Source: an uncultured virus (IMG/VR IMGVR_UViG_3300024239_000354)
Taxonomy: Duplodnaviria > Heunggongvirae > Uroviricota > Caudoviricetes
DNA: 64,000 nucleotides
Virus record (IMG/VR): IMGVR_UViG_3300024239_000354
Direction: 5' to 3' (one strand)
The translations under genes were made by a program, and so were the position numbers. The notes beneath the pieces were generated by a model, which searched no databases, was not told the DNA's origin, and saw only the letters and a program-made list of their open reading frames with translations. How positions within the stretch are numbered: the first letter of the stretch is position 1; each line of letters begins with the position of its first letter. Positions 2,193 to 61,357 of this stretch are shown here, one piece after another.

Positions 2193-2773
2193 TCAGTAAA
2201 TTTACGAGGGTCTGGAACTTCTCGCCCCTCTGCATCAAACCATCCATGGATGGTGACTTGAGAACGGTCGATCTTTCCCTTGTAACAAACACCACCACCA
2301 TAGAGCAGGCTATCTGCCAAAGTATCACTGATGTCTTTCGCGCGATCTTCAGCGCCCCACTGGCGTTTGTTCCGCAATTGATCGGCATCAACCTTGCATT
2401 TACTGATCGGCACTATAACCGAATAAACCACGTAAGGGGCTTTCCCTGGATACGCCATCCGGGCAAACCCAACCGCACGCTGCGGATCATATGTCAGGTA
2501 AACATTCCCGTGCCCGCTCTGAAGTGATTTAGCGGTGCGCGAGCTTGTTGGCTTAAGCCCCTGTGACATGATGTCGTGTTCAGTAGACGTGCCGTGGTAG
2601 AGCTTCAAATAGTTACGCTTGTTTCGGAACAACCAAAGATGAAATTCCCGTTTCTCTTCCGGTGTCAGATTCCCACGATTGGCCTTTAACTCAAGGTCAA
2701 AGAGGCGGCGCGTTTTCTGTGGATCAAAGTCGAACGGCTCAAAGGGCGACCCTTCGATTTCAAACAGTCTCAT
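2189..2773 (-). CDS. putative virion-packaged ADP-ribosyltransferase-fold protein
   Basis: MRLFEIE N-terminus; LYHGTS...GLKP...VYLT...A..FA pattern typical of ART-like phage domains. Confidence 0.6.
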   Translation of the reverse strand: MRLFEIEGSPFEPFDFDPQKTRRLFDLELKANRGNLTPEEKREFHLWLFRNKRNYLKLYHGTSTEHDIMSQGLKPTSSRTAKSLQSGHGNVYLTYDPQRAVGFARMAYPGKAPYVVYSVIVPISKCKVDADQLRNKRQWGAEDRAKDISDTLADSLLYGGGVCYKGKIDRSQVTIHGWFDAEGREVPDPRKFTD

Positions 2774-2982
2774 TTTCTACTCCGTATATGCAATTTCTCT
2801 TTTTGGCAGTCCACTTATAATTAGGACGATGCCCCATATGCCGGTCACGACTGTGGGTGGTTGGCTTGATGGCTTGATCCTGCATAATGGATGCGGCTTT
2901 GCGTACATCAGTACCATGAGGCGTCCTCAGTTACGATACGTTCAAGCAGGGTAATGTAGTGGCGAATTTCATCAGTAGACAT
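2760..2982 (-). pseudogene. frameshifted remnant of an ART-like late gene
   Basis: TAAATA promoter, then MSTDEIRHYITLLERIVTEDA; another frame continues HGTDVRKAASIMQDQAIKP... Confidence 0.45.
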
Positions 2983-3041
2983 AATCCTATTTATGGCGCC
3001 GATCCAGTCTGTGTGATATAGCTTACACAGAGGAAAATTAG

Positions 3042-3194
3042 ATGAAGACTTCACAATATCTTGGGATTTGCGGGTTGCTTTGGTTGAACGCTGGCACCCA
3101 ATTATTTGGTACGCAGTTGGCTGTTACGTATACCGGCATGGCAGTTTTGTGCATGCTTGGTTCAATTTATTATGGAATTCTAAAACGGGACTAA
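3042..3194 (+). CDS. small membrane protein
   Basis: 50-aa hydrophobic ORF (MKTSQYLGICGLLWL...) with GAGG SD. Confidence 0.55.
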   Translation: MKTSQYLGICGLLWLNAGTQLFGTQLAVTYTGMAVLCMLGSIYYGILKRD

Positions 3195-3196
3195 AA

Positions 3197-4471
3197 ATGC
3201 TTGATATTAAACTCTTTCGGGAAAATCCCGAAATCATCCGCACCGCTATGCAGAACCGTGGGGCAACCAAGCTTGCCGATTTGGTATCGAGCATTCATAC
3301 CGAAGAATTTCAGCTTCGTTTGCACCAGTCTCGTATTGAAACCAACCAAGCAAAACTCAATGCATTGTCGCGCGAAATCGGCTTAAAGAAAAAAGCCGGG
3401 GAACCTGCCGACGATTTAATGAATGAAGCCACACAACTTAACGCCATTATCAGTCAAGACACTGCTTCTCTTATTGAAGCGGGTGACAATACCTTGCATT
3501 TGAAACTGGCGCAGTTCCCCAATATCCCGGACGCGGATGTGCCGGTGGGTGACGAAAGCGCCAATCAAGCAGTGGATTCCTGGGGCACCCCAGGGTATCT
3601 ATATGGCAAAGACACCCCAAGTTGTCTGATTCCCAGTAAAAACCCAAAACCTCATTGGGAAATCCGTGGGTTCGACTTCGAGACGGCAACCAAAATGTCG
3701 GGGCGCCGCTTCACCATCCTTCGTGACGACATTGCCCGGCTCGAACGCGCCATCACCAACTTCATGGTCGATGTTCAGACCAAAGAACACGGCTATGAAC
3801 TGGTGTCGGTGCCATATCTGGTGAATTCGAACGCGCTGTTCGGGACCGGACAGCTTCCGAAGTTCGAAGATGACCTGTTCAAAACCACCGATGGTCGTTA
3901 CCTGATCCCGACTGCTGAAGTGTCACTCACCAATATGGTAGCGGACAGCATCCTCCATCTGGATACGCTGCCGATGAAAGTTTGTGCGGTGACCCCATGC
4001 TTCCGAGCCGAAGCGGGGGCGGCAGGACGTGATGAAAGGGGCATGATTCGCCAACATCAATTTAACAAACTCGAACTGGTCAAGGTCGTCCACCCAGACC
4101 ATTCGGACGCCGAACTTCAGAGCATGGTCGAAGACGCGCGCCAAATTCTGGTCAAACTGGGCATCCCACATCGTGTTGTGCTACTCAGCACGGGCGATAT
4201 GGGGTTCAGCGCCGCCAAGACCTATGACATCGAAGTGTGGCTACCGGGTCAGAACGCCTACCGTGAAATCTCGTCCTGCTCCAATTGCCGCGATTTCCAA
4301 GCTCGTCGCATGCAGGCACGTTTCAAGGACGAGAACAAGAAGAACCGTCTGGTTCATACCTTGAATGGATCGGGGCTGGCAGTGGGTCGGACTCTGATTG
4401 CCGTCGTGGAGAATTTCCAGCGCGAGGACGGCAGCATTGCTATCCCGGATGCGCTCGAACCGTACATGTGA
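3197..4471 (+). CDS. serS: seryl-tRNA synthetase
   Basis: MLDIKLFRENPE start, coiled-coil arm, GTGQLPKF, LIPTAEV, FRAEAG, EISSCSNC and TLNGSGLAVGR motifs. Confidence 0.97.
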   Translation: MLDIKLFRENPEIIRTAMQNRGATKLADLVSSIHTEEFQLRLHQSRIETNQAKLNALSREIGLKKKAGEPADDLMNEATQLNAIISQDTASLIEAGDNTLHLKLAQFPNIPDADVPVGDESANQAVDSWGTPGYLYGKDTPSCLIPSKNPKPHWEIRGFDFETATKMSGRRFTILRDDIARLERAITNFMVDVQTKEHGYELVSVPYLVNSNALFGTGQLPKFEDDLFKTTDGRYLIPTAEVSLTNMVADSILHLDTLPMKVCAVTPCFRAEAGAAGRDERGMIRQHQFNKLELVKVVHPDHSDAELQSMVEDARQILVKLGIPHRVVLLSTGDMGFSAAKTYDIEVWLPGQNAYREISSCSNCRDFQARRMQARFKDENKKNRLVHTLNGSGLAVGRTLIAVVENFQREDGSIAIPDALEPYM

Positions 4472-7800: not shown

Positions 7801-9467
7801 GGGTTACCCCCGCAGGTTCCCTTGGGGAAATATTGGAGCAAGGCGATTTTGATTTTGCTCTTCAGGCAACTGACAGTAACGGTGACCGCATTTTCTATCT
7901 GATCGAAGATGAAGAAAACGCACCACTTCCTCCTGGCTTGAATTTGAACACGACCACCGGGCACATCATCGGACGCCCGGAGCCAGTTGATCATGATCGA
8001 ACATACACGTTTACGATATCCGCCTATGATGGGTTTGTAAAAATTCCGCGTGATTTTTCATTAACAGTTAAAAATGTTGAATTCGATGCGGTGCCACATT
8101 GGAAAACCCCGACCGGCTTGGTCGGAAGTATTCTCAGCGGTGGTTCAGCATACTTCGTTATCGAAGCCGAAGACCCGTTGGGTCGTCCCATCACGTTCAG
8201 TGAATTCACAGGCGGTGGGGTGTCTCGCCTTCCTGCTGGGCTAACCATCCATGCGAACGGCGCTATCACGGGACAAGCAACTCCGGTTGGTTCAAACACC
8301 AAATATACATTCACGATAGAAGCACGCCCACAAAATGGCACTTATCCCATTCGTCGTGACTTCTCGATCATGGTACTATCCACTGCATCTAAAGATACTC
8401 TTACGTGGATCACCACAGCCGGTAATATCGGAGAGGTCGGGGAAGAAAGTCCATCCACAATGTATTGTGAAGCAAAAATCGAAAGCTCGTATAGCGGTAA
8501 TACTGATATCAAATATATGATTGGAAATGCAGAAATTATACCAGCAATTGGCAATCAACCCTCACATTTTCTCCCGGCTGGTTTAACACTAACCGTTCAT
8601 CAGAATAAAGCACTGATTGTCGGGTGTCCTAACCTGATTAATGGCGATCAAACTATTAACTTTACGCTACAAGCATTTGTTGGACCCGCGTCAAACCCAT
8701 CTGGTATTTCAGCAGTTCGGGAGTTTAATCTAACGGTTAAGGAAATATACCCAGACGAATACATTGATGTGTCATTGCCCCTTATGGGTGCAAACCGTCA
8801 TGATTGGATTAGCTGGAATACATCCAGTCTAATTGCAGATGATCTTTTGTACCGCCCAACTGATGCTAATTTTGGTCGTATGATAGAACCGAACATGTAT
8901 TTGATCGGCGGGCTTCGATTGATTGATGTGGGCAACCCAATTGGTGAATTTACCAAGAAAATTGGTATTCACCATCGTGCAATTAAACTATTCATGGGGG
9001 ACTTGAACCTCGTGAAAGTAATGAATCAGAAACGTGATAAAGTATTATATGAAGTGATTTATATACCATTAGTAGACAACGGTGCTGGTCATGACTTCGC
9101 AACCCCATATACCCATTTCCAAACAACCGGTATTGAAGAGGTCACGCCTGCATCCATCAACAATATGCGTCAAGAGCTTCGTGATAACATTGGTTTCATT
9201 CGTGAAAATGGCGAAAATTTTCCACCGTGGATGACTGTACAACGTACTGTGAATGGCAAGGTCGTCTTTGGGTATCAACCGGCTATGGTTGTCGCTTACG
9301 TGCGCCCTGGACAGGGTGAACGGGCGTTGAAAGTTATCCGCTCCAAAGCACTCGATACCGCCTTCGTTGGGCGTCAAATCGACCTAGACCGGTATTTACT
9401 CACAGTGGTGAAGAATGGGGGGAAAGCAAATCGTACTACCAAGTACGTCACGTTCCCGACGAAATGA
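4803..9467 (+). CDS. large multidomain virion-type protein: S8 subtilisin-like protease + M10 metalloprotease + Ig-like repeats
   Basis: IIDTG / GHGT / SGTSFSAP triad; HEIGHAIGIGH zinc motif with a downstream VM turn; repeated P.W.TP.G.LG and LP.GL.L...TG.I.G Ig-like units; TAAATA at 4771. Confidence 0.85.
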   Translation: MATNRYIVVLKKGTDRASFIKELTQQNINIPYVFVARPLDFVAQMDENKAATLRQDSRVFTVSIDEEIYPSAIQPIAPVGQQSNWGLDRIDQRSLPLNNKFSYSRTGRDVDLYIIDTGIRYTHSEFQGRARILPGFDPFGDNGIDDWKTNGHGTTVASVAGGRTCGVAKNVNIFSVKVFKQSSGYASTFIDACAAVKQHHLSKGNTNPSVVNMSLSFSGRLESINNAVRDLIENGIIVVNSAGNNNQDASNYSPQSTELDFRAIVKINAADIGNTIEFFVGSDPNSSSAIKLNTVPVPFTGNIVSLVENICYNINQLSSTKHISNDGLVSQGFHAYAPSSPVGRQLGLTDDCFLITTSLTQQWADRDAAITWKFNGTFNTPSANASANVIKDHRDVKLIVVGAVDETDTRAWFTNTSTETPNIADGNDLSNYGSVVDLFAPGTSIYGAQRTGDTQYIFQSGTSFSAPLTSGVICLHLEGREKNTIKVKEIHDWLIEVSTKGVLKNIPETRTVTEAQYAPEKIGTYTLVEETTGIVKWKKSTVNWSFIDREITNSNITNYHEVGSTIRPLWDSIFTDIIDPDQRKQLIEAQIRQAFSFWSEYAQIDFVKVDDDGRAPDQSTIDIRFGVEDIVDTNGDVLAHGFYPYTSTNGLTGDVHFDIDNTAQFKWNHGYSLTNGEIVQGIGTPLANGLLFLVTAIHEIGHAIGIGHTYSVLPENPTSRGLNVMEPDLRFSITAYLRKHSLGDGDISAAQKLYGRRYMGTVSRTIGGTPNRLLYSHYTNMTLEWVTLGDLGTIIEMTPFQTTIEAHSTNEAGDALTVWYSSSDLPSWLQLNATTGIVSGMTPEVTDDVQYDFTVTATDGQNTISRIFTVNVRHRNTPPKWLEPYQPERTFTVFEKTTIDPYTVSVIDEDGDTIVMTRHPVDWPEWLTFIFNGEDLSYSNPAKPRARRFFGTVTGTTPDLPRSEDQRRYKAVIRAHDGIEYTDRTVFFTVLQEPNVPPVWVTPAGSLGEILEQGDFDFALQATDSNGDRIFYLIEDEENAPLPPGLNLNTTTGHIIGRPEPVDHDRTYTFTISAYDGFVKIPRDFSLTVKNVEFDAVPHWKTPTGLVGSILSGGSAYFVIEAEDPLGRPITFSEFTGGGVSRLPAGLTIHANGAITGQATPVGSNTKYTFTIEARPQNGTYPIRRDFSIMVLSTASKDTLTWITTAGNIGEVGEESPSTMYCEAKIESSYSGNTDIKYMIGNAEIIPAIGNQPSHFLPAGLTLTVHQNKALIVGCPNLINGDQTINFTLQAFVGPASNPSGISAVREFNLTVKEIYPDEYIDVSLPLMGANRHDWISWNTSSLIADDLLYRPTDANFGRMIEPNMYLIGGLRLIDVGNPIGEFTKKIGIHHRAIKLFMGDLNLVKVMNQKRDKVLYEVIYIPLVDNGAGHDFATPYTHFQTTGIEEVTPASINNMRQELRDNIGFIRENGENFPPWMTVQRTVNGKVVFGYQPAMVVAYVRPGQGERALKVIRSKALDTAFVGRQIDLDRYLLTVVKNGGKANRTTKYVTFPTK

Positions 9468-9499
9468 AAAAGCCCCGGTCCATGGACCGGGGCTTTTTA
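9467..9499. terminator. bidirectional intrinsic terminator
   Basis: AAAAAGCCCCGGTC-CATG-GACCGGGGCTTTTT between convergent genes. Confidence 0.85.
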
Positions 9500-9500
9500 T

Positions 9501-10742
9501 TCACCACTCAAGAGCTTTCATAATGAAGTCCGATAGTTTTGCATTGTACGGACTTCCGCCCGCCAGCGCGCGAACATTGACTTCCTCGGCAGCAACTTCT
9601 TTCTCGCCCACCACGAGGATGAACGGAACCTTGCGTTCGGAGTGCTTTCTGATTTTCGCTCCAATTTTCTCGGCGCTCAGATCACATTCCACCCGGAACG
9701 AACTACCGAGGCACTTCGCCACTGCTTGGGCGTAGACATCAGCCTTTTCGCTAATAGTACAGACAACCGCCTGAACTGGTGCCAGCCACGGCGGAAGACG
9801 ACCCTCGGTGCTTTCCAGCAGCACGCCGATCCACCGTTCCATCGACCCCAGAACGGCATGATGGATCATCACCACCTGATCATGCTGATGCTCTTCCCGA
9901 GCAGAATGGTAGATAGCACCATCCTCATGCTGATAGGATAGCCCGAAACGCACAGGAAGCACAAAATCAAGCTGGAAGGTACCGCACTGCCAATCACGCC
10001 CAAGGGCATCCACCAGGGTGAATTCCAGTTTGGGTCCATAGAAAGCACCTTCGCCGGGGCTGATCTCAAATCCCAGCCCCATGACGTTACACGCCTCGGC
10101 AAGCATGGCTTCGGCGGCATCCCATACTTCATCCGACCCAGCACGCTTTATCGGGCGGGTAGAGAGCTTTACCTTGACATCGTTGTAGCCAAACTTCGAG
10201 TACACCTCGCGCAGCATTTCGATGTAGTTCTTCGCCTCGCCCAGGATATGTTCCTTGCGACAGAAAATATGGGCGTCATCCTGTGTGAATTCACGCAGAC
10301 GCATGATTCCGCTCAACGAACCAGAGGTTTCGTTACGATGGACTTCACCGAACTCGAACAACCGCATGGGCAATTCGCGATAGCTGCGGCGAACATGCCC
10401 GAAAATCTGGATGTGGGCGGGGCACGACATCGGCTTCAGGCAGTATTCCGGGTCCATAACTACGAAATCTTGGTTCTGCGGGTCGGGAGAGATGTCGCCG
10501 GTTACGAAGATACCTTCTCGGAACTTTTCCCAATGTCCACTGGTTTCCCAAAGCGAACGGCTGAGAATCGACGGGGTATGGATTTCCATATACCCATGCG
10601 CTTCATGTTGCTGGCGCATATAGTTCTCGATGGTCTTGTAGAGACGCCAACCCATAGGGTGCCAAAAAATCAGTCCGGGGTTATCGTCTTGCAAATGCAG
10701 AAGGTCCATGTCCTTCGCATGGGACCGGTGATCATTGTTCAT
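9501..10742 (-). CDS. thrS: threonyl-tRNA synthetase lacking the N-terminal TGS/editing domains
   Basis: Begins at the DHR catalytic-core boundary; LWETSGHW, LKPMSCP, FTQDDAHIF, GEGAFYGPK, WQCGTFQLD and IHHAVLGSMER motifs plus the anticodon-binding domain; AAGGAG SD. Confidence 0.95.
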   Translation of the reverse strand: MNNDHRSHAKDMDLLHLQDDNPGLIFWHPMGWRLYKTIENYMRQQHEAHGYMEIHTPSILSRSLWETSGHWEKFREGIFVTGDISPDPQNQDFVVMDPEYCLKPMSCPAHIQIFGHVRRSYRELPMRLFEFGEVHRNETSGSLSGIMRLREFTQDDAHIFCRKEHILGEAKNYIEMLREVYSKFGYNDVKVKLSTRPIKRAGSDEVWDAAEAMLAEACNVMGLGFEISPGEGAFYGPKLEFTLVDALGRDWQCGTFQLDFVLPVRFGLSYQHEDGAIYHSAREEHQHDQVVMIHHAVLGSMERWIGVLLESTEGRLPPWLAPVQAVVCTISEKADVYAQAVAKCLGSSFRVECDLSAEKIGAKIRKHSERKVPFILVVGEKEVAAEEVNVRALAGGSPYNAKLSDFIMKALEW

Positions 10743-10808
10743 GAAAAATAGCTCCTTTCGTCCCGCCGCTATGGGACCGGTACAAGGAGCCACGACGACG
10801 GTGAACTG

Positions 10809-10907
10809 TCAAATTTCAGTTGTGGTCGTGGTAGTGGTCGCAACAACGCAGCTATCGCCGGAAGCGGCGACGGTGATGGTGCTAAGAGCGTTGATGACCT
10901 GTTTCAT
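10809..10907 (-). CDS. threonine-rich leader peptide (attenuator uORF) of thrS
   Basis: MKQVINALSTITVAASGDSCVVATTTTTTTEI*, with seven consecutive Thr codons, followed by a hairpin covering the thrS SD. Confidence 0.85.
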   Translation of the reverse strand: MKQVINALSTITVAASGDSCVVATTTTTTTEI

Positions 10908-10912
10908 GGAAC

Positions 10913-10920
10913 TATTTATA
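10913..10920 (-). promoter_or_regulatory. T4-like late promoter TATAAATA
   Basis: Exact TATAAATA 5 nt upstream of the leader-peptide ATG. Confidence 0.7.
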
Positions 10921-10938
10921 CGCCGCCATCAGCCGTTG

Positions 10939-11085
10939 TCAACCAACCTTGAAACCGGGTGGGAATTTGGTACCCGCATCCGTCTGGCAGCGAAACACCT
11001 TGGTGTTGGCGTCGAACAACGCAACGGAGAAATTGGTACCCGTCATCTTGGCACCGGTAAAGGTATAACCCTTCATTTCCGCCAT
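10939..11085 (-). CDS. small hypothetical protein
   Basis: 48-aa ORF MAEMKGYTF... with a strong GGAGG SD. Confidence 0.6.
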   Translation of the reverse strand: MAEMKGYTFTGAKMTGTNFSVALFDANTKVFRCQTDAGTKFPPGFKVG

Positions 11086-11158
11086 GACTATTCCTCCGAT
11101 TAAGATTTCAACTATAGCGGACCAAACAAATATTGTCATTGAAGGGATAAATATAGCC

Positions 11159-11890
11159 ATGAGACTTATGCAAATCCACGAAGCCCGCAACACGCTTACC
11201 CGTAAGGATGCAATGTTGGTGTTGCGCGAAATTGAAACCGGACGAGGCGGGGTTGCCGAGCTTGCCAGGAAGAAACCATTCATCAGCCAACAAGCACAGG
11301 CATGGCTTTCACAGCATCACGGCACAACGCTCAAACTCTTTCGTGCGGTTGCGGTCACTGATAAATCGGAACTTCAGTCGGAAACCGTCGTCTCCACCAC
11401 CACGAATTGGGAAATCGCCTTCCATATGGCGAAGGACTTTCCGGTGATCTTCGGTCAAAAAGAATTCATCACCAACCGTCCACACCTTTTGCGGTATGAT
11501 GTTCCAATTAATCGTGTATTGGCTTATGTCCCATTACTAGTAGATCAATGCATGGAATTACTAGGGGATGTCGGTGATCAAAAAATCACCAGTAGCCGTT
11601 CATACGACCGCATCCCAGTGTCTCACATTATTCAAACCGGAAAAACCGAAGAAGAAGTGATTGTGAATGTATCTGGAATAACCCCACGAATAATCTCATT
11701 TGAGCAAAACACAAACGGACGCCGCTGGATGCAAGTATTTCAGCACGTTGTGGATGGGGATTATAAATCCGGTTCGAATTTTGAGAAATACTATCGAGAC
11801 AACTTCATAAATTGGCGCCCAAATAGTTGGGACGATGCTCGCAAAGAACATGATGATTTCGCTAAACAAGTTAAAGCGTTTATGCGCTAA
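11159..11890 (+). CDS. late protein, possible ART-fold
   Basis: ATAAATA 5 nt before MRLMQIHEARN; LFRAV...STTT...EEEVIV resembles the R-S-E ART pattern. Confidence 0.6.
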   Translation: MRLMQIHEARNTLTRKDAMLVLREIETGRGGVAELARKKPFISQQAQAWLSQHHGTTLKLFRAVAVTDKSELQSETVVSTTTNWEIAFHMAKDFPVIFGQKEFITNRPHLLRYDVPINRVLAYVPLLVDQCMELLGDVGDQKITSSRSYDRIPVSHIIQTGKTEEEVIVNVSGITPRIISFEQNTNGRRWMQVFQHVVDGDYKSGSNFEKYYRDNFINWRPNSWDDARKEHDDFAKQVKAFMR

Positions 11891-11905
11891 ATATTTGACC
11901 GGGGC

Positions 11906-11934
11906 TTGACTTTCATACCCCAGAATGGTATTCT
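11906..11934 (+). promoter_or_regulatory. sigma70-type promoter
   Basis: TTGACT-17 nt-TATTCT. Confidence 0.6.
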
Positions 11935-11960
11935 ATATTTGTTGATAAGGAGTTCCCCAC

Positions 11961-12128
11961 ATGACCAGCACTCGCGAAAAGATCGCCAAGCTTTCCGCTC
12001 AGTGGCAGAAGCGTGTTGCGCAGAACCCGAAGCTTGCTGAATTGAGCCTCGAAGAAAAGCCGGTTATTGAAGGTACCGTGCGCCCGATCAACGAAGCTGA
12101 AGTTCGTACCAATAATAAGGTGGATTGA
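11961..12128 (+). CDS. small hypothetical protein
   Basis: 55-aa ORF MTSTREKIAKL... with TAAGGAG SD; its stop overlaps the next ATG. Confidence 0.65.
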   Translation: MTSTREKIAKLSAQWQKRVAQNPKLAELSLEEKPVIEGTVRPINEAEVRTNNKVD

Positions 12129-39668: not shown

Positions 39669-39744
39669 TGGTGCTCCCACCCAGACTCGAACTGGGGACA
39701 TAGGCATTTAGAGTACCCTCTTCTACCAACTGAAGTATGGGAGC
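39669..39744 (-). tRNA. amber suppressor tRNA (anticodon CUA)
   Basis: GCTCCCATACTTCAGTTGGTAGAAGAGGGTACTCTAAATGCCTATGTCCCCAGTTCGAGTCTGGGTGGGAGCACCA; 76-nt cloverleaf, loop CTCTAAA. Confidence 0.9.
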
Positions 39745-43200: not shown

Positions 43201-44139
43201 CTATCGATCCTCGAACAGATTGGACACTGACATTTCGTGATTGATTCGATTGATCGCTTCCGCCAGTAACGGGGCGACCGTGATCTGTCGAATTTTCGCG
43301 CAACCATTCACTACATCAGTTGCTTTAATCGAGTCAGTAATTACCATTTCTGACAGAACTGAAGAACCAATGCGCTCAACCGCAGTACCAGACAGCACAC
43401 CATGGGTGATGTAGGCGGAAACTGAACGGGCACCCTTTTCAAGCAGTGCAGAGGCAGCATTGCACAGGGTACCAGCGGTGTCTACGATGTCGTCAATGAT
43501 CACGCAGTCTGCACCTTCGACGGTTCCGATCACGTTCATGACTTCACTGATGTTGGCTTTCTCGCGGCGTTTGTCGATGATCGCCAATTCCGCGTTATTG
43601 ATACGTTTCGCCAAATCGCGGGCACGCACCACACCACCCACATCTGGTGATACCACTACGGTATCACCCCGGAATTTTTCACGGATGTCACGGGCGAACA
43701 GTGGTGCTGCAAACAGGTTATCCACCGGAATGTTGAAAAAACCTTGAATTTGCATAGCGTGCAAGTCGAGAGTCAAAACACGGTGTGCGCCAGCGGTGGT
43801 GATAAGATCGGCAACCAATTTTGCGGAAATTGGGGTGCGGGGACCGGGTTTGCGATCCTGCCGGGCATACCCGTAATAGGGAATCACCGCCGTAATGCGT
43901 TTGGCGGATGACCGCTTCAATGCATCTATGGTGATTAATAGTTCCATAAGGTGTTCATTGCACGGGTGTGACGTGGATTGAACCACGAACACTTCGTTGC
44001 CACGGACATTCTCATTAATCTCAACGCGGATTTCCCCATCGGAGAACCGTTTGATCTCTGAATCTACGATGGGTATATCGAGATAATTGCCGATTGCCTT
44101 TGCTAGAGGCAGGTTACTGTTACATGAAAGAACCTTCAT
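43201..44139 (-). CDS. prs: ribose-phosphate pyrophosphokinase
   Basis: [34 protein letters not shown] and [10 protein letters not shown]. Confidence 0.98.
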
Positions 44140-44175
44140 TTTGCACCCCAATGGAAAGGCATATTGCCTTATATT

Positions 44176-46388: not shown

Positions 46389-46916
46389 TTACTTGAGTTT
46401 CTTCGGCTCTTTAGCCGTAATATCGGCTTCGATGACTTGGCCAGCCGCAGTAATCCCGATTTTCTTGGGCTTGCGCTCTTCGGGAACATTCCGGAACAAG
46501 TCAATTTCAAGAATGCCATTGACCATACGGGCACCAGATACTTCGATGTACTCTGCTAATTGAAAGGTGCGCGTGAAATTACGCGAAGCAATACCCTTGT
46601 GGATGAATGTCCGTTCGGTGGTATCGGCTTGTTGCTTACCTTCGACGGTCAGCTTACGATCATGTTCGGTGATCTCGATGTCGGATTCTGAGAACCCGGC
46701 AACCGCAATCGAAATGCGGTACTGGTCTTCGCCCAACTTCTCGATGTTGTAGGGCGGATACCCGTGTGGGTCCATTACGGTTCCGGTGTCTTCAAATAGA
46801 CGGAACAACGGCTCGTAACCGATAGCGGCATTCACCAAGCGGTTCAGGGTCTTATCGAGATTGGTGGTGTTGAGAGTAAGGGTGTGCGGTAACGCACGGG
46901 CGTTGTAATTAGTCAT
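46389..46916 (-). CDS. small heat-shock protein (IbpA/Hsp20)
   Basis: YPPYNIEK, IAVAGF, HKGIASRNF.RTFQL and NGIL.IDL. Confidence 0.95.
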   Translation of the reverse strand: MTNYNARALPHTLTLNTTNLDKTLNRLVNAAIGYEPLFRLFEDTGTVMDPHGYPPYNIEKLGEDQYRISIAVAGFSESDIEITEHDRKLTVEGKQQADTTERTFIHKGIASRNFTRTFQLAEYIEVSGARMVNGILEIDLFRNVPEERKPKKIGITAAGQVIEADITAKEPKKLK

Positions 46917-59376: not shown

Positions 59377-59895
59377 TCACTTTTTTGCGGCTTTGATTAC
59401 CGCAAGCATATCGCGCCCCGCGAGGGTGATCGACTGTTCAAAAATGATTTCCATACCGATCTGACTGATCAGACTTTCTATCACTTCACGACCATTTTGA
59501 GCGTGGGTTACTTCACGACCACGGAATTTTACCTTGATCTTGACCTTATCGCCATCCTCAAGGAATTCCTTGGTTTTGCGTGCCTTGATGGAAATATCGT
59601 TATCATCAGTCACAGGGCGAAGTTGGATTTCGCGAACGTGAACCTCATTAGCACGAGCTTTTTGACGTTCGGCGCGTTCACGCTTTTCCTTTTCAAATTT
59701 GTACTTCCCGTGGTCGAGTATCTTGCAGACCGGGGTATCCCCATCCGCGATCAAGACCAAATCCAGACCAAGATTACGGGCGCGATCTAATGCCTCCCGT
59801 CGAGAAATGATTTCGCTACCATTGTCGCTGACAACACGAACTTGTTGGGCGCGAATGGCGTCGTTGATCATATCTCCGTGTACTTCTCGTTTCAT
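59377..59895 (-). CDS. infC: translation initiation factor IF3
   Basis: INDAIRA.QVRVV, GLDLVLI, PVCKILD.GKYKFE and FL..GDKVK..V.FRGRE. Confidence 0.95.
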   Translation of the reverse strand: MKREVHGDMINDAIRAQQVRVVSDNGSEIISRREALDRARNLGLDLVLIADGDTPVCKILDHGKYKFEKEKRERAERQKARANEVHVREIQLRPVTDDNDISIKARKTKEFLEDGDKVKIKVKFRGREVTHAQNGREVIESLISQIGMEIIFEQSITLAGRDMLAVIKAAKK

Positions 59896-60088
59896 GTTAT
59901 CCTTTCTGAAGGCGTCCTGACTAAGTTTCAATGTGGACATTTGTTGATCCCGGTCTTGATTGAATTTTGAAATGGGAAACCACGAGAGTAATACCCTCGT
60001 GGCTGTATGGTACTATTAGATAGTATGCATGTTTTCCCATGGTCGTTCGACCAAACTCTACGGGGCGTTGAAGCGGTAGTCAACAAGA

Positions 60089-61357
60089 TTACGCCGGTTC
60101 GCTCTGCTCGGTTTGTTCGGTCATAAAAACCTTCAACGGTTCTGCTTCACCACGTACCACTTCCCCACTAATCACAACCTTGCTGATACCCTGATCATGA
60201 TAGTCGGGGAGGTGATATTGAACCGGTAAAAGGCATCCTTCCATCACGCTGCGTAGACCACGAGCGCCGGTTTTGCGGGTTTTGCAAGTCTTTGCAACTT
60301 CGGTGAGGGCATTTTCTGTAAATTCCAGACCAACCTTTTCGAGACTGAACATCTTGCTAAACTGTTTTACCAGAGCGTTCTTCGGTTCGGTCAAAATTTG
60401 GACAAGCTGTTCTTCGGATAGATCGTTCACATGAGTGTGAACCGGGAACCGACCGATGAATTCCGGTATCATACCGAACTTGATGAGGTCGCTTGGTTCC
60501 AGGCGGCGCAGAAGATTCGCGGTGTCTTCGTCGGTGCGTTCCTTTGAGTGCTTCACCGTGGCGTTGAAGCCAATGCTGCCTTTGGGTGAAATGCGTTTGT
60601 TGACGATTTCATCCAACCCGACAAACGCACCTGATGCAATGAACAGGATGTTGCGGGTATCGACGGTGAGAAATTCCTGCTGCGGGTGCTTACGACCCCC
60701 CTGCGGTGGAACACGGCACACGGTGCCTTCGACCATCTTCAATAGCGCCTGCTGCACACCCTCGCCCGACACATCGCGGGTGATCGACGGGCTGTCGGAC
60801 TTGCGGCTAATTTTGTCGATTTCATCAATGAAGATGATGCCGCGCTGGGCTTTCTCGACGTTGTATTCGGCGTTCTGTAGCAGCTTTGCGATGATGCTCT
60901 CAACGTCATCACCCACATACCCGGCTTCGGTCAACGTGGTGGCGTCGGCCATAGCGAACGGCACATCCAGCATCCGAGCAATGGATTGCGCCAACAGCGT
61001 CTTACCGCAGCCGGTCGGTCCAACCAGAAGAATATTGGATTTTTCGATCTCCACATCATCGATGACGGGGTTCTGTAGGCGTTTATAGTGGTTATGAACT
61101 GCTACCGACATCACCATCTTCGCGTAATCCTGCCCAATCACATACTGGTCAAGGAATTCGTGAATTTGGCGCGGGGTAGGGGTTTGGTTATCCTTTGTGA
61201 GGATGGGTTTTTCCTCTTCTGCAATAATACCGTGGCACAATTCAATGCATTCATCGCAAATATAAACGTTTGGACCTGCAATCAGTTTTTTGACTTGATC
61301 CTGACGCTTAGAGCAGAACGAGCATTCCAGTGACTTATCGTCTTTCTTATCGACCAT
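60089..61357 (-). CDS. clpX: ClpX ATPase
   Basis: CSFC...CDEC zinc finger, [34 protein letters not shown] and IGF loop. Confidence 0.98.

Follow-up and report, generated by a model that had tools for sequence, protein, structure and literature searches.

Introduction

The threonine operon of E. coli is controlled by an attenuator in which a short open reading frame (ORF), thrL, with its block of threonine codons, three alternative RNA pairings (1:2, 2:3 and 3:4) and a U-run together sense the position of the translating ribosome; thrL also carries isoleucine codons. At pheM-pheST, a leader peptide rich in the cognate codon stands before an aminoacyl-tRNA synthetase operon, which is regulated by classical leader-peptide attenuation. 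In the translational attenuation of ermC and cat, a ribosome stalled by a drug in the leader ORF frees a downstream Shine–Dalgarno (SD) sequence by re-pairing four RNA segments. The E. coli thrS operator, a tRNA-Thr mimic whose hairpin loops imitate the anticodon loop (NGU), and the T-boxes of Firmicutes likewise make thrS respond to the state of tRNA-Thr or of threonyl-tRNA synthetase (ThrRS). Here, we describe the leader of a phage-borne thrS gene in a 64-kb stretch of DNA, hereafter the window, from the uncultured virus record IMGVR_UViG_3300024239_000354. This leader contains seven consecutive threonine codons upstream of thrS, and we consider it likely to be a ribosome-mediated attenuator that senses charged tRNA-Thr.

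As in thrL, a short ORF with a threonine codon block is combined in the window with 1:2, 2:3 and 3:4 alternatives and a U-run. Unlike thrL, which controls threonine biosynthesis genes, the window's leader precedes thrS, and the SD of the controlled gene is itself part of its 3:4 hairpin. Table 2 of PMC5821084 gives pheM as the ‘pheST operon leader peptide’; that system concerns another amino acid and a cellular gene, whereas the window's leader has no SD and is phage-borne, together with an editing-less enzyme. In ermC and cat the stalling is drug-induced, whereas in the window it would arise from a shortage of charged tRNA. For S. lividans, the RNA-seq account in PMC8079986 proposes a leaderless thrL with threonine codons before thrS as a threonine-dependent attenuator, along with leaders before alaS, trpS and leuS. 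As presented there, this chromosomal thrL has only two threonine codons and no clear terminator; in the window, seven threonine codons are combined with a hairpin followed by a U-run. According to PMC2965389, T-boxes and leader peptides have been exchanged for one another at hisS. The attenuation mechanism is known from thrL, pheM-pheST and Streptomyces thrL-thrS, and its carriage by a phage is new: full-text literature searches, judged from listings and abstracts, turned up no phage synthetase described as being under a leader-peptide attenuator. The distinctive traits of the locus are its carriage by a phage, the editing-less enzyme, the leader without an SD and a hairpin that resembles a terminator and also masks the SD. 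Control by charging state would bear on the question of why aminoacyl-tRNA synthetases are found in huge phages, as it would tell when ThrRS is wanted, namely when the charging of tRNA-Thr falls short.

A threonine-codon leader upstream of thrS

The leader and thrS lie entirely on the minus strand of the window. An earlier reading of this DNA (the original prediction) had proposed the motif TATAAATA, a 32-aa ORF, seven threonine codons and a hairpin ahead of thrS, and all of these were found where it had placed them. The features of the locus are as follows.

10913..10942, minus strand: promoter-like TTGACA (10942-10937), a 16-nt spacer and TATAAA(TA), the last being TATAAATA (10920-10913), read from the sequence
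10809..10907, minus strand: leader ORF MKQVINALSTITVAASGDSCVVATTTTTTTEI, 32 codons from ATG 10907 plus TGA (10811-10809), without an SD
10818..10838, minus strand: seven consecutive threonine codons, ACC ACT ACC ACG ACC ACA ACT, being codons 24-30 of the leader ORF
10817..10830, minus strand: region 1, CACGAC (10830-10825) and AACUG (10821-10817), the 5′ strand of the 1:2 hairpin, inside the threonine codons
10791..10808, minus strand: region 2, the 18-nt spacer CAGUUCACCGUCGUCGUG, which pairs with region 1 or region 3
10761..10804, minus strand: 2:3 antiterminator or anti-sequestor, in which 10804-10786 pairs with 10778-10761 and GACGAAAGGAGCUAUUUUU stays single-stranded
10751..10790, minus strand: 3:4 hairpin with an outer stem GCUCCUU (10790-10784)/AAGGAGC (10757-10751) and an inner stem GUCCC/GGGAC (labelled I5)
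10744..10750, minus strand: U-rich run UAUUUUU, directly 3′ of the 3:4 hairpin and ending 1 nt before the thrS ATG
9501..10742, minus strand: thrS, 413 aa, with a class II catalytic core (PF00587) and an anticodon-binding domain (PF03129)
9471..9488, minus strand: terminator-like hairpin and T-run, 13 nt past the thrS stop

The threonine run is the only one of at least five residues in the six frames of the window, in which about 3.7e-4 seven-threonine runs would be expected from the frequency of the AC dinucleotide. Its third bases vary (C, T, C, G, C, A, T) and the run is therefore not a slipped simple triplet repeat. Since all four ACN codons are present (three ACC, two ACT, one ACG and one ACA), every isoacceptor would be sampled. 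The original prediction had these codons ending the ORF; the seven codons and four codon types stand as described, but GAA ATT TGA follows them, so that the run is near the end only. The leader ORF ends 66 nt before the thrS ATG and is in the same frame as thrS, the two starts being 165 nt apart. That a gene for ThrRS is preceded by seven codons for its cognate amino acid fits the sensing of threonine.

The A of the leader ATG lies 8 nt from TATAAA, and a transcript started from TTGACA-N16-TATAAA would therefore be leaderless or nearly so. As the leader ORF has no SD, its translation would need leaderless initiation, and we infer such a start from this promoter-like sequence. The sequence is absent from the output of our promoter scan because the scan demands a T at position 6 of the −10 hexamer.

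Three mutually exclusive pairings

The leader region folds with a minimum free energy (MFE) of −62.2 kcal/mol (z = −2.66), a value equalled or bettered by 2 of 200 shuffles, and the MFE structure of the free leader holds two adjacent hairpins, 1:2 and 3:4. In the 1:2 hairpin (−11.4 kcal/mol alone), CACGAC (10830-10825) pairs with GUCGUG (10796-10791) and AACUG (10821-10817) with CAGUU (10808-10804), and the stop codon of the leader sits in the loop. The 3:4 hairpin has an energy of −18.0 kcal/mol alone and of −22.6 kcal/mol when extended by GUG...UAU. Its 3′ arm contains AAGGAG (10757-10752), which is the sole SD for the thrS ATG at 10742; the hairpin is followed by TATTTTTC and then by this ATG. 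The sequestration of the thrS SD between GCTCCTT and AAGGAGC, with a U-run after it, had been part of the original prediction and was confirmed. When the SD arm is held single-stranded, the best structure is 2:3 (−20.1 kcal/mol), with stems of CCGUCGU (10801-10795) and GCGGCGG (10769-10763), GUGG and CCAU, and CC and GG.

The three pairings 1:2, 2:3 and 3:4 are mutually exclusive. Among 2000 shuffles of the 18-nt spacer, 17 reached the energy of 1:2 and 95 that of 2:3, while none reached both; the dual complementarity of region 2 is thus beyond chance. The gap of only 9 nt between the hairpin and the thrS ATG leaves no room for a promoter of its own, so thrS must be transcribed through the hairpin, which argues for a conditional rather than a constitutive element. 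No Thr_leader (which we take to be RF00506), T-box (presumably RF00230) or other relevant family was found in an Rfam search of 9300-12000 up to E = 10, and neither hairpin loop, AUAGCGGC or AAAUUUGA, holds an NGU anticodon-like triplet. This sets the locus apart from thrL in the first respect, and in both from the E. coli thrS operator and the T-boxes.

Further repeats and complementarities had been pointed out for this region. CCACGAC/GTCGTGG (labelled I2), CGCCGCT/AGCGGCG (I6) and a repeat of ACCGGTCCCAT (D2) all exist; as a competitor of the hairpin, however, CGCCGCT/AGCGGCG is not what folding prefers, the favoured pairing being CCGUCGU/GCGGCGG, and the CGCCGCT segment makes a local hairpin. 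This segment is perfectly complementary to the hairpin loop and belongs to a near-duplicate of region 2 inside the leader ORF (D1; UCACCGUCGCCG vs UCACCGUCGUCG, at 10865-10876 and 10793-10804), which could act as a second, ribosome-independent competitor. The exact 11-nt direct repeat ACCGGTCCCAT occurs at 10781-10771 in the 5′ arm of the hairpin and at 10729-10719 in codons 5-8 of thrS; the copies are 52 nt apart and no role was found for them.

Proposed mechanism and ribosome position

We propose that the 32-codon leader is translated and that the position of the ribosome decides between the pairings. With plentiful Thr-tRNA(Thr), the ribosome would reach the TGA and leave; region 2 would then lie under the ribosome or be taken up by pairing with region 1, and 3:4 would form. 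This hairpin would stop transcription at UAUUUUU and, in read-through RNA, bury the thrS SD. With scarce charged tRNA-Thr, the ribosome would stall on one of the seven threonine codons and cover region 1, not region 2, which would pair with region 3. Once formed, 2:3 would block the hairpin, transcription would go on and AAGGAG would be free. The scheme needs the leader to be translated, transcription to end at the U-run and expression to respond to threonine, and we infer all three from the arrangement of the elements.

The geometry of the locus was analysed with a ribosome footprint of 28 nt, extending 12 nt upstream and 15 nt downstream of the first base of the P site. Whichever of the seven threonine codons occupies the A site, region 1 lies under the footprint and region 2 stays free; with the ribosome on the stop codon, the 5′ part of region 2 is covered. 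In folds of the whole leader, the SD-burying stem had the following probabilities.

No ribosome: 0.81-1.0
A site at codons 24-26: 0.27-0.33
A site at codon 27: 0.61-0.69
Later A-site positions: at least 0.76

Thr-rich leaders before other thrS genes

A scan of viral contigs kept 80 thrS loci (numbered with the prefix L), 24 of them short-form, and a further scan brought the set to 33 distinct short-form upstream regions, 7 of which came from giant-virus metagenome-assembled genomes. Loci with less than 250 nt upstream, no in-frame ATG or an identical upstream sequence were dropped before counting, and a region was scored as Thr-rich if some 9-codon stretch contained at least 6 threonine codons. 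A search upstream of short thrS homologues for Thr-rich ORFs had been suggested in the original prediction; the counts were as follows.

Short-form viral thrS upstream regions: 3 of 33 (L044, L049 and L064)
Random segments of 250 nt taken from these loci: 4 of 4000
Regions upstream of long-form thrS: 2 of 117
Proteobacterial thrS upstream regions: 0 of 72

A cruder control, which scored the small upstream ORFs of 141 regions for four or more identical residues in a row (threonine in 3 loci, isoleucine in 2 and serine in 2), pointed only weakly to an enrichment of threonine.

The leader of L064, on a 437-kb contig, has TTGACT-17-TAAAAT, an SD and the ORF MHIVKNTTTTTTTQIEAGLVRYCR (2331-2405). 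It is followed 47 nt before thrS by a terminator of AACCCAGC-UAAAU-GCUGGGUU, its arms also given as AACCCAGC-UAAAU-GCUGGGUUUUUUU, and U5 (2428-2453). AGCUGGG inside the ORF (2378-2384) pairs with CCCAGCU of the terminator as an antiterminator, which a ribosome reading on to codons 16-25 melts and a ribosome stalled at threonine codons 7-11 leaves in place. The ThrRS proteins of L044 and L049 are 94% identical, and the loci lie on contigs of 40 kb and 436 kb. Both have a 62-codon ORF ending in ...ITTETTTTTASA or ...ITTETSTTTAKD, and the threonine codons (CACCACAGAAACA) pair with UGUUUC...GUGGUG at the ribosome-binding site of thrS. Compensatory changes preserve an inner hairpin (GCCAGCGC/GCGUUGGC vs GCCAAGG/CCUUGGC), and the folds have z = −5.9 and −3.1. 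Judging from these loci, three huge-phage lineages, the window's included, have a Thr-rich leader before a short thrS, with different RNA designs; because the designs differ, the recurrence looks convergent. The core of the original prediction, a threonine-codon leader sensing charged tRNA-Thr, is supported by the pairing geometry, the cognate match and the leaders of L064 and L044/L049. Its physiological part, in which a backup enzyme would be induced late in infection, for instance when the host attacks tRNA, is a conjecture, and the prediction as a whole is partly supported.

In addition, L058 (455 kb) has a 6-codon ORF that encodes MTRTTS and has a strong SD, together with a 13-bp hairpin; this is no more than suggestive of a threonine leader. 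A pair of related leaders (MTPRTSTTTFTSTEV and MTPRTTTTPTRV) was also seen at two bacterial long-form loci of 60-65% GC, L141 (1596-1715) and L122 (1652-1765), and each is followed by a strong intrinsic terminator. Rfam at its gathering score gave nothing in L141, L122, L064, L044 or L049.

Relatives of the window's own leader were sought in three scans. A single-protein scan of viral contigs revealed no close relative, and none was found among 80 loci of a metagenome scan (at most 52% identity, nearly all long-form) or 80 loci of a genome-contig scan (all long-form and of proteobacterial type, 48-53%). The sole apparent short form in the metagenome scan, L104, looks like a frame-shifted long form. 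Among sequencing runs, two further samples carry the window's leader unchanged (in the contigs of X3 and X4), and X5 and X6 gave no more than small pieces that do not include it; no RNA run was listed as containing the locus. A search for relatives of L064 returned L064 itself only.

Weighing of alternative explanations

Several results count against a threonine-sensing attenuator. When only the RNA downstream of a stalled ribosome is folded, the MFE structure remains the closed hairpin, by 3 kcal/mol (−25.6 vs −22.6). In nascent RNA ending before the SD arm, 2:3 is the MFE structure with or without a ribosome. Owing to the (CGU)3-like sequence of region 2, a shifted, shorter 2:3 also persists when the ribosome has reached the stop codon. 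The folding of alternative states envisaged in the original prediction therefore produced the three mutually exclusive pairings but not their discrimination at equilibrium, and the switch would have to be kinetic, with 1:2 forming first; the trp attenuator is likewise decided kinetically. The leader ATG has no SD, and translation depends on a putative start site. The threonine run mirrors the codon usage of the 21 long ORFs of the window (ACC 310, ACT 156, ACG 115 and ACA 88), with no enrichment of rare codons. The U-run is interrupted and the 3:4 hairpin was not listed by the terminator scan, because its interrupted stem falls outside the rules of the scan. As no relative of the window's leader was found, there is no covariation, and 30 of the 33 other short-form viral regions have no Thr-rich leader. 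Lastly, the threonine content of the window's ThrRS is ordinary for its family (see below).

These points have to be set against four other explanations. Control could be purely translational, as in ermC and cat, with a hairpin that only masks the SD until a stalled ribosome opens it. This variant, nested within the attenuator that we favour, would account for the SD inside the 3′ arm of 3:4, for the short, interrupted U-run and the silence of the terminator scan, and for the direct pairing of threonine codons with the thrS ribosome-binding site in L044/L049. We nevertheless judge it unlikely, as UAUUUUU comes right after a stable hairpin of −18 to −22.6 kcal/mol and as the leaders of L064 and of the bacterial L141 and L122 have clear intrinsic terminators. 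It is quite improbable that the ORF is untranslated, the threonine codons serving just as an RNA strand and the hairpin being a constitutive SD block or one controlled by a protein or RNA, for example by ThrRS itself or a factor recognising the repeated 11-mer. The missing SD of the leader and the unexplained 11-nt repeat (10781-10771/10729-10719) would agree with this idea, and E. coli ThrRS is described in PMC2965389 as repressing its own mRNA. An RNA strand, however, would need no seven ACN triplets with varied third bases, the threonine runs before other phage thrS genes are embedded in quite different structures, and the loops AUAGCGGC and AAAUUUGA contain no anticodon-like NGU triplet. 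Moreover, self-repression by E. coli ThrRS needs the N-terminal part of the enzyme, which the window's ThrRS does not have.

The hairpin and U-run also lie downstream of a small SD-bearing ORF of 48 codons, and the hairpin might be the terminator of that gene, with a chance ORF in between and thrS expressed by leak-through only. We consider this very improbable, given that the single seven-threonine run, with the low expectation per window stated above, stands exactly before thrS, that none of 2000 shuffles matched the complementarity of region 2 to both neighbours and that Thr-rich leaders recur in other phages. Barely credible, in our view, is an N-terminal extension of ThrRS through read-through or recoding of the TGA. 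The shared frame of leader ORF and thrS and a suppressor-like tRNA in the window (anticodon CTA) would speak for it, but this tRNA reads TAG rather than TGA, TGA ends 10 of the 21 long ORFs, ThrRS homologues begin at the DHR motif and a strong SD precedes ATG 10742.

The synthetase and its threonine content

The thrS product matches TIGR00418 (threonine--tRNA ligase) with 443 bits, above the cutoff of 383.65, over profile positions 170-559 of 565. It aligns to residues 242-616 of 1qf6_A and starts where the N-terminally truncated crystal constructs (1evk) start, and it is therefore a ThrRS without TGS and editing domains. The residues C107, H158 and H294 do not vary among 17 short ThrRS sequences, and in 6l2p_A they correspond to the motifs CP.H, DDAHIFC and H.A.LGS; we take these residues to be the zinc ligands. 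The closest database matches are short-form proteins of 54-58% identity (P0003-P0006, with P0003-P0005 at 58%), one of them on an 853,705-bp contig, and bacterial ThrRS from Pseudomonadota is about 50% identical.

The window's ThrRS contains 11 threonine residues in 413 (2.7%), compared with 7.3% in the 21 long ORFs of the window. The family as a whole is Thr-poor, with a mean of 3.2% and 35 of 119 homologues at or below the value of the window, and the low content is therefore not counted as support. The counts in other phage synthetases are as follows.

L064, ThrRS (2501-3661): 0 of 386 residues; Thr-rich leader
L044, ThrRS: 4 of 398; Thr-rich leader
L049, ThrRS: 5 of 398; Thr-rich leader
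L058, ThrRS (2501-3682): 1 of 393; MTRTTS mini-ORF
L008, ThrRS: 1 of 386; follows a tRNA-Thr gene
L051, ThrRS: 18 of 405; no leader

Neighbouring ORFs in these loci have 3.8-6.7% threonine (4.4-5.7% near L064 and L058). The same logic recurs in three lineages, the window's included, and is accompanied by Thr-free or Thr-poor enzymes in L064, L058 and L044/L049, which points to selection for enzymes that work while threonine-tRNA is short. It is possible, if somewhat doubtful, that such loci are self-contained ‘emergency charging’ modules of at least three independent origins, each made of an editing-less, Thr-poor or Thr-free ThrRS and a leader sampling all four threonine codons. If so, the synthetase could itself be built during the shortage and would keep phage translation going when infection, starvation or host defence collapses the charging of tRNA-Thr; the module of the window would join termination and SD masking in one hairpin, with a leaderless leader ORF.

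A different arrangement was seen in L243 (LR756504.1, a 636-kb uncultured phage) and L008, in which a tRNA-Thr(GGU) gene (1423-1497 and 2423-2497, respectively) ends directly adjacent to the ATG of thrS. Both thrS genes are short and almost Thr-free (1 threonine in 386 aa), with a tRNA-Thr(UGU) gene downstream. Because tRNA-Thr(GGU) abuts the ATG, the SD-like GAAGG lies in the acceptor stem of the tRNA, and the arrangement may be another way to couple thrS to its tRNA.

Upstream signals and genomic context

Two further features lie upstream of the leader.

11111..11139, minus strand: sigma-70-like promoter ATGACA-17-TATAGT, 10 of 12 matches, ahead of a small upstream ORF
10939..11085, minus strand: 48-codon ORF preceded at 5 nt by a GGAGG SD; its stop codon, TGA, shares bases with the TTGACA hexamer

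The site at 11139-11111 is a possible start of a longer transcript also carrying the leader, although the sigma-70-like scan, with 1 site against a shuffle mean of 1.8, is weak alone. On such a transcript, ribosomes would have to re-initiate at the leader ATG once past the 48-codon ORF. In addition, the surroundings of the leader ATG (10902-10912) are complementary to those of the thrS ATG (10737-10747; labelled I4) and form the closing helix of the leader MFE structure, so that on a transcript from the upstream promoter the two start codons could pair with each other. The 48-codon ORF had no Pfam or PHROG match; a language model gave pentapeptide-repeat proteins as look-alikes (score 0.96, 161 shared features), which is a lead only. 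Among the collected thrS loci, neither this ORF nor the leader peptide had a homologue below E = 0.1. Two other candidates were rejected. As a T4-like late promoter motif, TATAAATA occurs at 4 sites against 1.19 expected, a number reached by 4 of 100 shuffles, and the other three sites are not consistently ahead of genes. A plus-strand ORF at 10735-11103, in which the threonine run reads as Val7, had no PHROG match and was treated as spurious.

The ThrRS protein of the window belongs to an 869,618-bp contig. This size, together with the PHROG families strongly matched by window proteins, five tRNA genes, an initiation factor IF-3 gene and two aminoacyl-tRNA synthetase genes, makes a huge phage a plausible source, although only two weak matches to structural genes were found in the window. 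The second synthetase gene is a full-length serS (TIGR00414, 472 bits) at 3197-4471 on the plus strand, with its ATG at 3197. In the region 3043-4471 no Ser-rich leader precedes serS, and the 50-codon ORF directly upstream (3043-3195) is hydrophobic. The tRNA with anticodon CTA lies at 39669-39744 (minus strand); it is labelled tRNA-Pyl by ARAGORN and is a possible amber suppressor, and TAG ends 1 of the 21 long ORFs. The infC (IF-3) homologue is at 59377-59940 (minus strand; TIGR00168, 156 bits), and the window also encodes a ClpX-like ATPase (60089-61357), an Hsp20 (46389-46916) and a PRPP synthase (43201-44151).

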